A DNA stretch of 64,000 nucleotides, taken from positions 21,616 to 85,615 of IMG/VR virus record IMGVR_UViG_3300035670_000121. One strand, given 5' to 3'. The DNA is from a virus (lineage: Duplodnaviria > Caudoviricetes). Of the stretch, positions 2,838-55,351 are shown piece by piece. The position numbers and the translations under genes are program-made. The notes below the pieces were generated by a model that had not been told where the DNA came from, searched no databases, and worked only from the letters and a program-made list of their open reading frames with translations. Each line of letters starts with the position of its first letter. Position 1 is the stretch's first letter.

Positions 2838-3203
2838 ATGAATATCGTAACTAAACTTCTAACATATCAAAATCAAGTTAAAATTTTGCATTGGCAAACA
2901 ACGTCATACTCTGAACATAAATCATTAGGTGATTTATATGACGGCCTTTCTGAACATATCGATCAATTTGTTGAAGTGTTTATGGGTAAATATGGTAGAA
3001 TTGTAAGCCCATCAACATTTCATTTAATTCTCGAAAATTATAAAAATTTAGGTCCAATGTCCCTCATGAATGAGATGGAAACGTATTTGGTAAACGATGT
3101 GCCAACAATGTTAGACGCTAAGAAAGATACTGACTTGTTAAATATTAGAGATGAAATGTTAGCTGATGTAAATAAAACCAAGTATCTATTAACTTTAAAG
3201 TAA
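2838..3203 (+). CDS. Ferritin/Dps-like four-helix protein (DUF5856-like)
   Basis: HWQTTSYSEHKSLGDLYD...IDQFVE and LLNIRDEM...KTKYLLTL pattern. Confidence 0.7.
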   Translation: MNIVTKLLTYQNQVKILHWQTTSYSEHKSLGDLYDGLSEHIDQFVEVFMGKYGRIVSPSTFHLILENYKNLGPMSLMNEMETYLVNDVPTMLDAKKDTDLLNIRDEMLADVNKTKYLLTLK

Positions 3204-3788
3204 TTTATAATTGGGATATTTCTTAGATAAAGCTTTTGCTAAAATAGCATGATGATTAGAGTTATGTTCTAAAGCTGCATGTCTGAGTGAGTTATAAACA
3301 ACTCCATCTATTTCAATTTTTGTACCTCTTGTTTGGCTCATCTTAAGTTTGGTTTCATTTGAATGAGTTAAACCAAACATTGGACCATTTGGATATTTTG
3401 TTTTGGCATTTTTTCTTCTTTTGTCTTTTAAATTTTTACAACAAGCAGCTTTTCTTGTGTTTTCGAGTTGCTTTTTTCTTATTTGTTCCTTAAAAGGATG
3501 ATTAGAAATCATATCTCCACCAGAAGCGTTTTTATTAATATTAAAAGCAGGTTTAAGCGTGTCTAAATAATATTGTTCTTTTTTCTTAACGTCGTCACAT
3601 AATTCTATTATTTCTAACCATAAAGTTTCTTCACCATATTTATTGAAATGTTGCTGCAACCAATAGTTTGAATGATTATTGTTTTTTAATTGAGACAAAT
3701 GCCTATTCCATCTTTTTTTAATATTGATAGAACTTCCTATATAAAAATCATTATTGATTTTGTTTTTTATTTTATAAACGCCTTTCAT
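3195..3788 (-). CDS. Free-standing GIY-YIG homing endonuclease with NUMOD3-like tail
   Basis: GVYKIKN...FYIGSS...KRWNRH...EQYYLD; PMFGLTHSNETKLKMS. Confidence 0.9.
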   Translation of the reverse strand: MKGVYKIKNKINNDFYIGSSINIKKRWNRHLSQLKNNNHSNYWLQQHFNKYGEETLWLEIIELCDDVKKKEQYYLDTLKPAFNINKNASGGDMISNHPFKEQIRKKQLENTRKAACCKNLKDKRRKNAKTKYPNGPMFGLTHSNETKLKMSQTRGTKIEIDGVVYNSLRHAALEHNSNHHAILAKALSKKYPNYKLL

Positions 3789-21420: not shown

Positions 21421-23306
21421 TGCGTAAAAAAAGAATTCTTATTCATAGTAATCATTGCAAAATGTTTACCGGATTCGGTAAGCATAAGAAAAATTTGTTA
21501 AAATATTTGCACAACACAGGTAAATACGAAATCATTGAATTCAGTAATGGTTATCCGTGGTCTTCTGATGAGTTGCAGTATACTCCTTGGAAAAGCTATG
21601 GATCTTTACCTGATGATCCTGAACATCAAAAAGAAATAGCTAACGACGAAAGAAAAAAATCAACTGCTGGTTATGGCGGTGAAATGATTGATCGGGCTAT
21701 TTATGAATTAAAACCTGGTATTTATTTAGGAATAGAAGATATTTGGGGATTTAATGGATTTTTTGAAAAGCCTTGGTGGAACAAGATTCATTGTATTATA
21801 CATACAACACTAGATAGTTTGCCTATTTTGCCAGACGCTGTAAATGTCGCGTCTAAAATAAAAAATTATTTTGTATGGGCAAGTTTTGCAGAAAAAGCTT
21901 TACACAAATTAGGTCATACACATGTTAAAACAGTACATGGAACGTTAGATGTTAATAATTTCTATAGACTTCCAGACGATGCTCGTTCAAGACTTAGAAA
22001 ACATTTTAATCTAGAAAAAAGTTTTATAATTGGATTTGTATTTAGAAATCAACTAAGAAAATCAGTCCCTAATTTGCTTGATGGATTCAAAATGTTTGAT
22101 GAAGCAAATCCATCTGCTAACGCTAAATTATTATTGCATACATTTTGGAACGAAGGTTGGGATATTCATAGATTATTAAAAGAAAAGGACATTCCTCTTA
22201 ATAAAGTACTTACAACTTATTATTGTAAAAACTGTTACAATTATCATATCAAGCCATTTCAAGGGCAGATTTTAAAATGCGATTATTGTCAACATCCTAA
22301 TTCATGCGAAACAACAAATATTAAAAGTGGCGTAAATGAACAACAGTTGAATGAGATTTATAATTTAATGGATGTTTATTGCCATCCTTTTACAAGCGGT
22401 GGACAAGAAATACCTATTCAAGAAGCAAAACTTACTGAACTGATAACATTAGTAACTAATTATAGTTGTGGTGAAGATTCTTGTAGCTCTGAAAGCGGCG
22501 GCTTCCCTTTAGACTGGGCTGAATACCGAGAACCCGGTACTCAATTTATTAAAGCTTCAACACTACCTACAAGCATTAATGAAAAATTAAAAATGGTATA
22601 CGAAATGGCTTTTGATGAAAAAGTATTACTTGGTAAAAAATCACGTAACTATGTAATCAATAAATATAGTATTGAAATCGTAGGAAAATATTTTGAAGAT
22701 TTATTTGATTCATTTCCTGAAGTCGAATTTGATTATGAGAAAGTGGATATGACTCCAAATGCATATTTTGAACCCAACAATTCTTTAAATGATAAAGAAT
22801 GGATTGAGTCATTGTATGAAAATCTTTTAAAACGAAAAGATTCGTCTGGCGTTATTCATTGGTTGCAACGCTTGAAGACTGATTTAAAAAGACAAGATGT
22901 ATTAACTTATTTTAGAAAAGTTGCGCTATCAGAAATACAAAAAGCTGAATTTGAGAAAATGCTCAAAATTCTAAATGAAGATAAAAGTCTTAAGAAAATC
23001 GCTTATATTCAACCTGATGGAGCTGAAGAAGTTTTGATCGCTACATCAATTCTTCCTTCTATTCAAAAAGTTTATCCTGACCATAAAATTTATTTCTTTA
23101 CAAAAAGCGAGAATTTCGATTTAATAAATTCACATCCAAATGTTTATAAAACATTATCGTATTTTAATAAATTAGATGATCCTCTTTACCTAGAAGGAAA
23201 AGGCAATTTAAATAAATATTTTGATATTGTATTTGCTCCGTATTTATCAATTAGAAACAATTATTTTAGAAACGCTCAAGATATTTTAGAGTATCAAACA
23301 ACATGA
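21420..23306 (+). CDS. GT-B glycosyltransferase (GT4-like) with extra C-terminal domains
   Basis: TGFG, RNQLRKSVP, IYNLMDVYCHP...GGQEIPIQEA. Confidence 0.8.
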   Translation: MRKKRILIHSNHCKMFTGFGKHKKNLLKYLHNTGKYEIIEFSNGYPWSSDELQYTPWKSYGSLPDDPEHQKEIANDERKKSTAGYGGEMIDRAIYELKPGIYLGIEDIWGFNGFFEKPWWNKIHCIIHTTLDSLPILPDAVNVASKIKNYFVWASFAEKALHKLGHTHVKTVHGTLDVNNFYRLPDDARSRLRKHFNLEKSFIIGFVFRNQLRKSVPNLLDGFKMFDEANPSANAKLLLHTFWNEGWDIHRLLKEKDIPLNKVLTTYYCKNCYNYHIKPFQGQILKCDYCQHPNSCETTNIKSGVNEQQLNEIYNLMDVYCHPFTSGGQEIPIQEAKLTELITLVTNYSCGEDSCSSESGGFPLDWAEYREPGTQFIKASTLPTSINEKLKMVYEMAFDEKVLLGKKSRNYVINKYSIEIVGKYFEDLFDSFPEVEFDYEKVDMTPNAYFEPNNSLNDKEWIESLYENLLKRKDSSGVIHWLQRLKTDLKRQDVLTYFRKVALSEIQKAEFEKMLKILNEDKSLKKIAYIQPDGAEEVLIATSILPSIQKVYPDHKIYFFTKSENFDLINSHPNVYKTLSYFNKLDDPLYLEGKGNLNKYFDIVFAPYLSIRNNYFRNAQDILEYQTT

Positions 23307-53205: not shown

Positions 53206-53279
53206 GGGATCGAAGCATTAAAGTGATGCAATGGTCTTTTAAACCATAGAAGAGGGAGCGTTACCCTCCGGTCCTACCA
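53206..53279 (+). tRNA. tRNA-Lys(UUU)
   Basis: GGGATCG/CGGTCCT, ATGGT-CTTTTAA-ACCAT, atypical T-loop, CCA. Confidence 0.88.
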
Positions 53280-53306
53280 ATTTATTTTTGTTCTTTTTAT
53301 AATTAC

Positions 53307-53578
53307 GGGCCTTTAGCTTAATGGTTAAAGCAGCGAACTCATTTAATAAAAGTGCCTTATAGAAGAAATTCTATATTGAATCGCGTCAAAGTCGGTGAAA
53401 CCTAAACTACAAATAGTAGGCAATACCGAGCCAAGCTGTAGAAATACAGAAGGTGTAGAGACTTGACGGCGCGTTCCTAAAGTAGAAATACTATGGAAGT
53501 GGTAAAGTCCAGAGAGAATAGAAATATTCACAAATCCGAATTCGTTGAGTGAAGGTTCAAATCCTTCAAGGCCCCCCA
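53307..53578 (+). tRNA. tRNA(CAU), probably Ile2, split by a group I intron (exons 53307-53342 and 53539-53578)
   Basis: GGGCCTT/AAGGCCC; spliced arm GCGAA-CTCAT|AA-TTCGT; TTCAAAT; CCA. Confidence 0.9.
53343..53538 (+). mobile_element. Group I intron (IC3, Azoarcus-like), 196 nt, at anticodon 36/37
   Basis: P1 CAU/GUG with U.G; core GTCGGTGAAACC...ACCGAGCCAAG...GGTGTAGAGACT...AAAGTCCAG; terminal G. Confidence 0.92.
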
Positions 53579-53580
53579 TT

Positions 53581-54255
53581 TTATTCTGTTCTTTTACATT
53601 TTGAATCAATAATATTTGTTATTATATCTACAAATTTTTGAACTCTGTCTGGTTTGAAATAAGAAATACTAGATACATCAATAATGCATAATTCTATATT
53701 CCGTTCTAAACAAGCTTGAAATTTTCTTTGATCATTATTTTGTGTTCTTAAAAGTTTTTCTTTACCATAAATAGGTTCATAATGAAAAATACCATTTAAT
53801 TCAAAAGCTAATTTCAAATCAGGAATATAAATATCTAACTCAGAATTAATAGTATCAATTCTATTAAAATGAAATTCTAAATCAGGATAACGATTTGGTA
53901 AAATTTCAGATAAATAAATTTCAAATTTAGATCTTCTACAACCATGAGTTTTATGAGTGTTGTTGTATGTTGCGGCGCATGATCTGTTACAAAAAGAATT
54001 TGGATGCCTTCGATGTTCTCCTGCTACTTTGAAAAATTCACTTCCGCATTGCTTGCATTCAACTTTAATTTTTGTAATTTGTTTAATACCTTGGCATTTA
54101 TTCGAACAATAATGTTTTGTTTGATTCTTTAATTTAAGATCGCTTTTTATTTGAGCTTGTCTTCTTTTAAAAATTTTTTGACAAGAATCGCATTTAACAT
54201 CTAAAAGATCCATTGATTTATAATTAGAAATTTGATCTATAGAAATTAATAACAT
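53581..54255 (-). CDS. Free-standing homing endonuclease (Zn fingers plus Vsr/PD-(D/E)XK-like)
   Basis: CDSC, YCSNKC, CKQC, FCNRSC; ELDIYIP..AFELNGIFHY...DQRKF..C. Confidence 0.82.
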   Translation of the reverse strand: MLLISIDQISNYKSMDLLDVKCDSCQKIFKRRQAQIKSDLKLKNQTKHYCSNKCQGIKQITKIKVECKQCGSEFFKVAGEHRRHPNSFCNRSCAATYNNTHKTHGCRRSKFEIYLSEILPNRYPDLEFHFNRIDTINSELDIYIPDLKLAFELNGIFHYEPIYGKEKLLRTQNNDQRKFQACLERNIELCIIDVSSISYFKPDRVQKFVDIITNIIDSKCKRTE

Positions 54256-54356
54256 AATATATATTATATACATGATAAGATTCGAAATGTGAAATTCAAA
54301 TCTTTTGATGTTGACAAGAGCAAGTTTTCAGAGTAGATTGTTCGTGTTCTTTAAAT

Positions 54357-54431
54357 GCATCTGTAGCTCAATTTCAGAGCCAACTCTTTATAAGGGTTAG
54401 GTTGCGCGTGAGAGTCGCGCCAGATGCACCA
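54357..54431 (+). tRNA. tRNA-Ile(UAU)
   Basis: GCATCTG/CAGATGC, AACTC-TTTATAA-GGGTT, A73, CCA. Confidence 0.85.
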
Positions 54432-54499
54432 ATTTTTCCCTTGACAAAGGGCGTATCCAATAGTAGGATATGTACGTTCTTTAAAATTGAAGGTTCTGT

Positions 54500-54781
54500 C
54501 GGGCAGTGGCGAAATGGCAGACGCATTATTACGGTGCATTTATAGCGAAAGCTATATCTAAACGGTGTAAATTCGGCGAACGGTTTAACCTCCCAACGCC
54601 GAGCGAAATCTCGAAAGAGAGACGTGTAGAGACTATAATCACCCATCTAAAGTAGTAATACTAAGATGAAGGCATAGTCCAGACTACAAACAGAGAAATC
54701 TGGTAACGAAAGTTATAGTAGTACGCAGACTTAAAATCTGAAGGTAGAAATACCGTAGGGATTCGAGTTCCCTCTGCCCGA
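54500..54781 (+). tRNA. tRNA-Leu(UAA) split by a group I intron in the anticodon stem (exons 54500-54526 and 54726-54781); no encoded CCA
   Basis: CGGGCAG/CTGCCCG, D arm GCGAAATGGCAGACGC, spliced arm T|CAGA-CTTAAAA-TCTGA, long variable arm, TTCGAGT. Confidence 0.85.
54527..54725 (+). mobile_element. Group I intron (IC3-like), 199 nt, at tRNA position 27/28
   Basis: P1 GCAU/GUGC with U.G; AAATTCGGCGAA, ACGCCGAGC, GTGTAGAGACTA, AAGGCATAGTCC (P7 GACTA/TAGTC); terminal G. Confidence 0.9.
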
Positions 54782-54803
54782 CAGAGCCTTTAATTTATAA
54801 ATT

Positions 54804-54994
54804 TTGCAGCAATGAGGGCAGTCGTCACTAAGACGTAGCTTAAGGTAGCCAGTGAAAAGCCTCTCGGAAAGGATCTGGTAGAAATCAGGACATTTAATTA
54901 GCGTAAAGTAGATGATGCTTTTCGAATCATCCGAGCTAAAGTATGTCGATATCTGATTGGGAACACATTAAGCACTGAACAACCTGATCTGCAA
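54804..54994 (+). ncRNA. Unclassified structured RNA, long copy
   Basis: TTGCAGCAATGA...TGATCTGCAA closing helix; several internal helices; covaries with 54998-55085. Confidence 0.75.
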
Positions 54995-54997
54995 TTT

Positions 54998-55085
54998 TTG
55001 CAGCAATGACGGGAGTCGGTAATTGACCGTAGTTTGGGGCGCTGGAAATTCCGGGCACCAGACAACTCAGCGACGTGATCTGCAA
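54998..55085 (+). ncRNA. Unclassified structured RNA, short copy
   Basis: Same termini and three-way-junction core as 54804-54994. Confidence 0.75.
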
Positions 55086-55094
55086 AAAAACATA

Positions 55095-55149
55095 CAGTGC
55101 GCCCAAGCGATCTTGTTTTGAGTCGCTTTACACTGAGCAAAAAATGGGC
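55095..55149 (+). ncRNA. Candidate pseudoknotted RNA
   Basis: CAGTG/CACTG, GCCCA/TGGGC crossing, AGCGA/TCGCT hairpin. Confidence 0.45.
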
Positions 55150-55170
55150 ATTTAGTTCTTTTATAATAAT

Positions 55171-55266
55171 TTTTAGGTTCAACCGCTAATGAAAGGTGTC
55201 ACCTATTGGTTTAGGGGATGGACACTGCGGATCGGAAAATAACCAATACACCGCATGAACCTAAAA
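55171..55266 (+). ncRNA. Candidate structured RNA
   Basis: 11-bp closing helix TTTTAGGTTCA/TGAACCTAAAA plus internal helices. Confidence 0.55.
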
Positions 55267-55268
55267 TT

Positions 55269-55346
55269 TCTTGCTAGAAGGAGAAAGAGGCTCATGCCTC
55301 TGTCCTGTAAGTTTTTAAATAAACGAGAAAGGCACTTTTAGCAAGA
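55269..55346 (+). ncRNA. Candidate structured RNA
   Basis: 12-bp closing helix TCTTGCTAGAAG/CTTTTAGCAAGA; AGAGGC-TCAT-GCCTCT hairpin. Confidence 0.5.
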
Positions 55347-55351
55347 TTAAT

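Follow-up and report, generated by a model that had tools for sequence, protein, structure and literature searches.

The split tRNA-Leu(UAA) gene and its intron

The virus DNA analyzed here (Duplodnaviria; Caudoviricetes) is a stretch of 64,000 nucleotides (nt), positions 21,616 to 85,615 of the IMG/VR record IMGVR_UViG_3300035670_000121, and is referred to as the window. On its plus strand, positions 54500 to 54781 form a class II tRNA-Leu(UAA) gene in two exons, separated by a 199-nt insert at 54527 to 54725. We conclude that this is very probably a functional phage tRNA-Leu(UAA) gene that carries a group I intron without an open reading frame (ORF) between U27 and C28. A junction at tRNA positions 27/28, in the anticodon stem and four bases 5' of the loop, is supported because the cloverleaf of the joined exons, the guide sequence, the helix in the 3' tail that places the terminal G, and nine further loci with the same junction agree. 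The initial annotation of this DNA had joined U54526 to C54726, and all four lines of evidence bear out that choice.

The 5' exon (54500 to 54526) holds tRNA positions 1 to 27 in exactly 27 nt: a 7-nt acceptor strand, U8 and G9, a 3-base-pair (bp) D stem (GCG/CGC) closed by a loop of 10 nt, and finally A26 and U27. The 3' exon (54726 to 54781; tRNA positions 28 to 73) consists of CAGA, the loop CUUAAAA, UCUGA, the long variable arm, the T arm, the 3' strand of the acceptor and the discriminator A; CCA is not encoded. The anticodon loop (CTTAAAA in the DNA) lies intact at 54730 to 54736, 3' of the insert, as had been read in the initial annotation, and the 3' exon contains the whole anticodon hairpin (positions 28 to 42), which immediately follows the terminal G of the insert. 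Joining U54526 to C54726 yields the anticodon stem U-CAGA/UCUG-A. The ligated exons were folded by ARAGORN into a canonical 84-nt class II tRNA-Leu(taa) with four stems and a variable arm, and have the 3-bp D stem, long variable arm and UAA anticodon of a bacterial-type class II tRNA-Leu. The unspliced gene was called by ARAGORN neither with nor without intron mode and was not matched by the Rfam tRNA model, in line with an earlier expectation that tRNA finders would miss it. No further tRNA-Leu gene was found by ARAGORN in the 85.6-kb record.

By sequence and predicted structure, the insert is a group I intron in the family of phage and cyanobacterial-type tRNA-Leu(UAA) introns. The Rfam model RF00028 (Intron_gpI) matched positions 54518 to 54703 with 44.5 bits (E 3.4e-10 on 501 bases), and the same intron was recovered when the whole record was searched (E 1.4e-11). 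The covariance-model check proposed in the initial annotation thus succeeded by E value and fell short by score, which lies under the gathering cut-off of 50 bits. Rfam holds no bacterial group I seeds, and a survey of split bacterial tRNA genes used a cut-off of its own of about 20 bits (Williams 2020, bioRxiv 10.1101/2020.01.27.920355). We also employed a covariance model, R1, whose training set of 21 introns, all inserted in the anticodon loop, came from other phage contigs; it contained no 27/28 intron and excluded the window. R1 matched the window intron over its full length (model positions 1 to 162 of 162; 54557 to 54725) with 160.4 bits (E 3.1e-45). This match stopped exactly at G54725, which was aligned with the terminal G of the 21 loop-site introns. 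In BLASTN searches, the 3' half of the intron resembled Agrobacterium phage Atu_ph07 and the 735-kb LR756501; the region matched in each of them is a tRNA-Leu(UAA) intron at the classical U34/A35 site. The conserved P7'/P9 motif was present in at least 120 viral contigs, mostly within tRNA genes. Together, the Rfam match, the homology to phage tRNA-Leu(UAA) introns and the locus-independent model R1 uphold the earlier identification of the insert as a group I intron.

The helices expected of a group I core, P3 to P9 with P7 among them, are present, as is the terminal G. Analysis of 24 compact introns, including that of the window, with RNAalifold revealed 35 pairs, 21 of them with compensatory double changes, in P4, P5, P6, P6a, P7, P8 and a three-part P9 domain. 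In the window, P4 (54573 to 54578 with 54597 to 54602) encloses P5 (54582 and 54583 with 54592 and 54593), both with compensatory changes, and is followed by P6 (54603 to 54605 with 54623 to 54625) and P6a (54609 to 54611 with 54618 to 54620). P7 pairs GACUA (54631 to 54635) with UAGUC (54675 to 54679), the two strands named in the initial annotation, and P8 is a hairpin at 54644 to 54668. The P9 domain (54683 to 54722) consists of a long-range helix, ACUAC (54683 to 54687) with GUAGU (54718 to 54722), around a small hairpin and a GAAA-capped hairpin (54703 to 54716). P3 was paired by eye between GGUG (54564 to 54567) and CACC (54640 to 54643) and was left uncounted, as its register in the MAFFT alignment differs between sub-lineages. 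Upstream of P3, a P2 hairpin of 6 bp with a GAAA loop (54541 to 54556) has a homologous hairpin in the relatives. The 27/28 introns have three versions of P7, which differ by compensating changes: GACUA/UAGUC, GAUCA/UGAUC in L144 and GAGUA/UACUC in L370 (L-numbers denote the phage or metagenome loci compared with the window gene).

The 5' splice site is defined by P1 (54523 to 54537), in which the exon end GCAU and U54527 face the guide strand G-GUGC (54533 to 54537). The guide GUGC (54534 to 54537) pairs with GCAU (54523 to 54526), with a wobble pair U54526.G54534 at the splice site; this pairing and the terminal G can be read directly in the sequence, just as initially described. On its exon side, P1 takes up two bases from the D-stem 3' strand (G24 and C25) together with A26 and U27. 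The same pairing is present in L144, L145, L368, L332 and L370, and is one pair longer (C23) in L370. Across the intron family, the guide covaries with the site: 33/34 introns combine exon GACU with guide GGUC, 34/35 introns exon CUU with guide GAG, and the window intron and its like exon GCAU with guide GUGC. The guide of the window is unable to pair with the anticodon-loop sequence.

The 3' splice site is set by the terminal (omega) G54725, the position at which the R1 match and the introns of Atu_ph07 and LR756501 end. The tail helix (54683 to 54687 with 54718 to 54722) joins the conserved strand just after P7', and the terminal G lies 2 to 3 bases beyond it, at G54725. The middle pair of this helix was C/G in 87, U/A in 22, U/G in 3 and C/A in none of 148 distinct copies, and 36 copies had no tail motif. 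With the 3' site fixed, a lenient ARAGORN search also tolerated four alternative 5' ends, none more than 4 nt from U54526 (introns of 201, 198, 196 and 195 nt). The initial annotation had called the U54526-C54726 join the only possible splice. This holds for the standard cloverleaf, which is obtained without an extra base only with U54526; as a statement about any acceptable ligation or any U.G pair it was too strict, as four other ends pass ARAGORN and a second U.G is possible.

Two features of the flanks were noted. A promoter-like TTGACA was seen by eye upstream of tRNA-Leu, as with the neighboring tRNA genes. The acceptor helix is prolonged by ten further bp in the flanks, discriminator included (54490 to 54499 with 54781 to 54790). 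This extension is kept in L368 and L372 and absent from L144; it may be a processing site or a clamp that keeps the two exons together.

Recurrence of the site and relationships of the introns

The 27/28 junction was found in ten phage or metagenome loci, including the window, which represent about six lineages: the window itself, L368/L372, L144/L369, L145/L371, L332/L334 and L370. The initial annotation had suggested a search of metagenomes for the same site, and the nine other loci are its outcome. A scan with a 3'-junction pattern gave two true relatives (L144 and L145) among 26 viral matches, and with a stricter pattern all five metagenome contigs recovered were true (L368, L369, L370, L371 and L372). 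L332 and L334, with a tail unlike that of the window, were recognized by eye among the unclassified anchors of the survey described below. Seven ligated genes, one for each 27/28 lineage and one example with a 25/26 intron (L321), all gave complete tRNA-Leu(taa) cloverleaves in ARAGORN. Their acceptor and T stems differ throughout. The anticodon stem shows compensating changes as well: pair 29:41 is A-U in the window and G-C in L144, and 28:42 changes from C-G to U-A in L370. This compensatory pattern, in tRNA and intron helices, is what would be expected from selection on a spliced, working tRNA.

A survey of intron anchors in viral contigs covered 228 anchors, 147 of which had a tRNA-like ligation. 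Since ARAGORN run over all splice pairs was too permissive alone, the 3' end was then fixed by the tail motif and P1 was required to have at least 3 pairs. The script left 24 of the 147 unclassified, and all 24 (L072 included) were read by eye. All other classified sites lie in the anticodon loop: Leu 34/35 (the most frequent), Leu 33/34, Met 33/34 and 36/37, and sites in Arg, Lys, Asn, Gln and Ile genes. In cellular genomes, two scans with 3'-junction patterns, in which 185,579 prokaryote species were represented by one genome each, did not find the 27/28 intron; both patterns were narrow, requiring the tail of the window and the loop CTTAAAA, so that other tails (e.g., that of L332) escape them. 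The first scan gave no match and the second 22, all of them chance matches in coding sequence. A loose pattern, ACGCAT-gap-GGTGCATT, returned 120 rows, and none of the seven with a core-like motif was true.

We also scanned for an intron-less allele. The unbroken 22-nt 5'-exon string matched only L072 and L373. Both contain uninterrupted tRNA-Leu(UAA) genes, but with A27 or G27, and were rejected as intron-less U27-C28 alleles. L072 has a further peculiarity (minus strand, about 3020 to 3760): a tRNA-Leu(UAA) 5' exon precedes an intron of the 33/34 type, whose P5 region contains a large insert with a tRNA-like T arm at its end. This split 5' exon has no matching 3' exon, and the next feature is the complete, uninterrupted tRNA-Leu(UAA) gene; the arrangement may be a remnant or a rearrangement. 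The 27/28 junction also has a neighbor. L321 (10300 to 10610) is a tRNA-Leu(UAA) gene with a 222-nt intron of the same family at 25/26, which matches R1 with 102.8 bits. Its exon ends in CAU, from the 3' strand of the D stem, its guide is GUGU, and the ligated gene is a tRNA-Leu(taa).

The relationships among these introns were examined in two trees. The quick tree included 92 of 109 distinct introns, those longer than 480 nt being dropped unless they belonged to the 27/28 class. Six of its seven 27/28 rows formed one group (Shimodaira-Hasegawa-like approximate likelihood ratio test [SH-aLRT], 86) beside a group of Leu 33/34 introns (90). The rows of the window and L372 carried extra upstream sequence in this tree; the careful tree was free of it and was built on 54 chosen rows, namely, the half of the quick tree with the 27/28 rows and eight outgroup rows. 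There, the grouping of the window, L368 and L144 was supported at 93/97. L145, L332 and the 25/26 intron of L321 fell, without a resolved position, in the same major clade as the window (100/96), and L370 fell in the other major clade, beside 34/35 introns. A single clade for the 27/28 introns was not rejected by the approximately unbiased test (P = 0.10). These comparisons place the window intron as a relative of the anticodon-loop introns in phage tRNA-Leu(UAA), tRNA-Met and tRNA-Lys genes. We infer that at least one, and perhaps two, retargeting events moved the guide about 6 to 7 nt upstream, from the loop onto the strand of the D stem; the shift may have proceeded by reverse splicing or by recombination between introns.

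Predicted splicing and rival explanations

Splicing of the tRNA-Leu precursor would follow the ordinary group I pathway. The guide GGUGC and the exon end CGCAU would form P1, with U27.G as the wobble pair, and an external guanosine would attack after U54526. The freed 3'-OH of U27 would then attack after the terminal G54725, positioned by the P9 tail helix and P7, and joining of the exons would produce the 84-nt class II tRNA. Because P1 engages bases that belong to the D-stem 3' strand, the D arm would be unable to form until P1 releases the 5' exon.

Several observations weigh against this account. RNA was checked through the contigs of four of six metatranscriptome runs that matched parts of the stretch, and in these four runs none of the contigs spans the 54526-54726 junction. 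In run X15, a contig of 151 nt (depth, 4.4) matches 54579 to 54725 with no mismatches, ends its match exactly at G54725 and leaves four letters unaligned; as one contig, this is too little for support. P1 has only 4 to 5 bp and competes with the D stem, so that splicing could be inefficient or protein dependent, and inspection by eye revealed no P10, the helix that would join the guide region to the 3' exon. The exon/guide pairs are invariant within the 27/28 class, and P1 thus shows no covariation inside it. Two adjacent U.G pairs are possible in the window (at U54526, and U54527.G54533), between which group I rules alone do not decide. The Rfam score, as noted, does not reach the family threshold. 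Finally, the virus record is rated 58% complete, and a second tRNA-Leu gene could lie in the absent part.

One alternative is a dead gene, in which the intron landed in or slid into a helix from which correct splicing is impossible, leaving a decaying tRNA-Leu pseudogene. The missing junction contig, the short P1 in competition with the D stem, the lack of a visible P10 and the low Rfam score would all fit. However, the junction is retained in about six diverged lineages whose cloverleaves are intact and whose substitutions compensate one another in the tRNA (acceptor, T and anticodon stems) as well as in the intron (P7 and other helices), R1 matches over its full length with 160 bits, and the promoter-like TTGACA precedes this gene as it does its neighbors. 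We therefore regard decay as very unlikely. Splicing one base later, after U54527, is the least probable of the alternatives and would be surprising. The resulting tRNA would have either one surplus base separating the D arm from the anticodon stem or, with A44 recruited, a 6-bp anticodon stem. U54527.G54533 would offer a second wobble pair and lengthen P1, ARAGORN still accepts the ligation, and A54741 and A54742 could pair with two U residues. In L145, however, the base at +1 is C, a Watson-Crick partner, leaving U27 as the sole wobble pair there; L144 has a U after A43, which makes a sixth pair impossible in that gene; and a cut after U54526 gives the 5' exon of exactly 27 nt that matches standard numbering.

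The remaining alternative accepts the junction and differs from our explanation only in degree: splicing would need help from a protein of the phage or the host (a maturase, chaperone or tRNA-binding protein, for example), since P1 must displace the D stem. Many group I introns require protein help in vivo, and the 4- to 5-bp P1, its conflict with the D stem and the unseen P10 would be consistent with such a need. Conversely, the core is complete and close to that of the classical tRNA-Leu-type loop-site introns, which self-splice in vitro, and there is no maturase-like ORF in or beside the intron. We consider a protein requirement unlikely, if less so than decay or a shifted splice site. A functional gene with an intron between U27 and C28 therefore remains the reading that we favor.

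A broader interpretation of the site, which we offer tentatively and hold to be possible rather than probable, is that the border between the D stem and the anticodon stem in phage tRNA-Leu(UAA) is a second, independently colonized home for group I introns. Two intron sub-lineages at 27/28 and another at 25/26 would each have arrived with a retargeted guide, perhaps through reverse splicing within one RNA. P1 and the D stem are mutually exclusive, and splicing would therefore act as an obligatory folding switch before the tRNA body forms. If this were true, the colonized border might protect the phage gene, or the precursor transcribed from it, against nucleases that target tRNA-Leu.

Neighboring features, known introns and implications

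The split tRNA-Leu gene is located in a tRNA gene cluster, between tRNA-Ile(UAU) (54357 to 54431) and tRNA-Arg (55352). The ORFs that adjoin it have no Pfam match, and no near-identical phage record was found. Just 3' of tRNA-Leu, the noncoding region 54797 to 55106 showed high contig depth in all four metatranscriptome runs (about 160 to 390 in X15) and harbors two direct copies of a roughly 20-nt sequence (near 54803 and 54995); the interval 54782 to 55351 gave no Rfam match and folds no better than shuffled sequences (z, -0.5). A second split tRNA gene, tRNA(CAU), lies at 53307 to 53578. Its 196-nt ORF-less group I intron (53343 to 53538) occupies the classical 36/37 loop site and matches Rfam with 45 bits, and its ligated exons form tRNA-Met(cat). 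ARAGORN in intron mode found this gene and miscalled it as Arg(ccg). A contig from RNA library X16 runs from the tRNA(CAU) 5' exon (53305 to 53342) to the splice site and continues with 3'-exon-like sequence, with 2 mismatches in 38 nt; it represents either a spliced tRNA(CAU) transcript or the intron-less gene of a relative. Contig joints between 53470 and 54665 were dismissed, as they reflect the conserved cores of other introns, like most other pieces. A low-scoring tRNA with the anticodon UUU and an odd T loop (53206 to 53276; Rfam, 43.2 bits) was not called by ARAGORN. Between tRNA(CAU) and tRNA-Ile(UAU), a free-standing ORF for 230 amino acids on the minus strand (53581 to 54273) matches phage homing/HNH endonuclease families (phrog_559; E 7.5e-19); it has no Pfam match, and L368 has no such gene at the same spot.

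The stem position of the tRNA-Leu intron departs from the anticodon-loop rule of the described tRNA group I introns; the element itself is no new kind. Williams 2020 (bioRxiv 10.1101/2020.01.27.920355) reported 5,292 split bacterial tRNA genes of 21 types, all with introns in the anticodon loop, and outside the loop mentioned only an intron in the T loop of transfer-messenger RNA (tmRNA). The window intron falls outside all 21 types, as its site is not in the loop. The software of that study tests only the eight sites that bound the seven loop nucleotides, and genes like the window tRNA-Leu would therefore not be called by it. According to a 2014 review of bacterial group I introns (PMC3984707), all phage group I introns then known were in protein genes, despite the many phage tRNA genes. 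Full-text literature searches, which did not reach supplements and image tables, returned no report of a stem-site tRNA group I intron. The author of the initial annotation had known of no 27/28 site, and both the loop-only survey and our searches are consistent with this.

The classical tRNA-Leu(UAA) introns at 34/35, with phage examples in Atu_ph07 and LR756501, share with the window intron the type of gene, a P3-P9 core that aligns throughout and the 3' tail. They differ in their site, in the loop instead of the stem, and in the partner of the guide, which is the loop sequence CUU in their case and CGCAU (D stem, 26 and 27) in the window. Unlike members of the Leu.3Ug class (U34/A35), the window gene has its anticodon uninterrupted in the 3' exon. 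Most 27/28 introns are closest to the phage 33/34 introns of tRNA-Leu(UAA), tRNA-Met(CAU) and tRNA-Lys (L352, L343, L297 and L278), which have the P7/P3' signature in common with them and belong to the same major clade (100/96), but are inserted in the loop and use guide GGUC with exon GACU. The Azoarcus-type 36/37 intron of tRNA(CAU), exemplified in the window 1.2 kb upstream, is likewise a small ORF-less IC3-like tRNA intron; it differs in its loop site, its P9 region and its score with R1 (only 79.9 bits).

Outside the anticodon loop, the only described bacterial group I introns in a tRNA-like fold are those in the T loop of tmRNA (Williams 2020); their host is tmRNA, not a decoding tRNA, and we place the junction at the border between loop and stem of the T arm. 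Five apparent tmRNA genes among the loci compared here, L273 (10400 to 10815), L281, L282, L307 and L316, carry introns of the same sub-lineage at this T-loop/T-stem border. The L273 type has an upstream tag-like frame ending in ALAA and a 3' end CCA, and scores 144.9 bits with R1. A ribozyme-type intron within a tRNA helix also occurs in plastids, where the trnG(UCC) gene has an intron in the D stem; unlike the window intron, it is a group II intron, organellar and maturase dependent. Protein-spliced archaeal introns interrupt tRNAs outside 37/38 as well. As described by Fujishima and Kanai 2014 (PMC4033280), these are removed by an endonuclease and a ligase at a bulge-helix-bulge, without a ribozyme, and are neither bacterial nor phage.

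ARAGORN and the Rfam tRNA model overlook the window gene, loop-only mapping would not call genes like it, and phage tRNA repertoires are therefore undercounted. The window gene also provides a natural case in which a ribozyme draws on one strand of a tRNA helix to form its substrate helix, P1, which suits it to the study of competition between exon and ribozyme folding. Moreover, one intron lineage occurs at 25/26, 27/28, 33/34 and 34/35 of a single tRNA species, each time with a matching guide, so that shifts of intron site can be compared directly.
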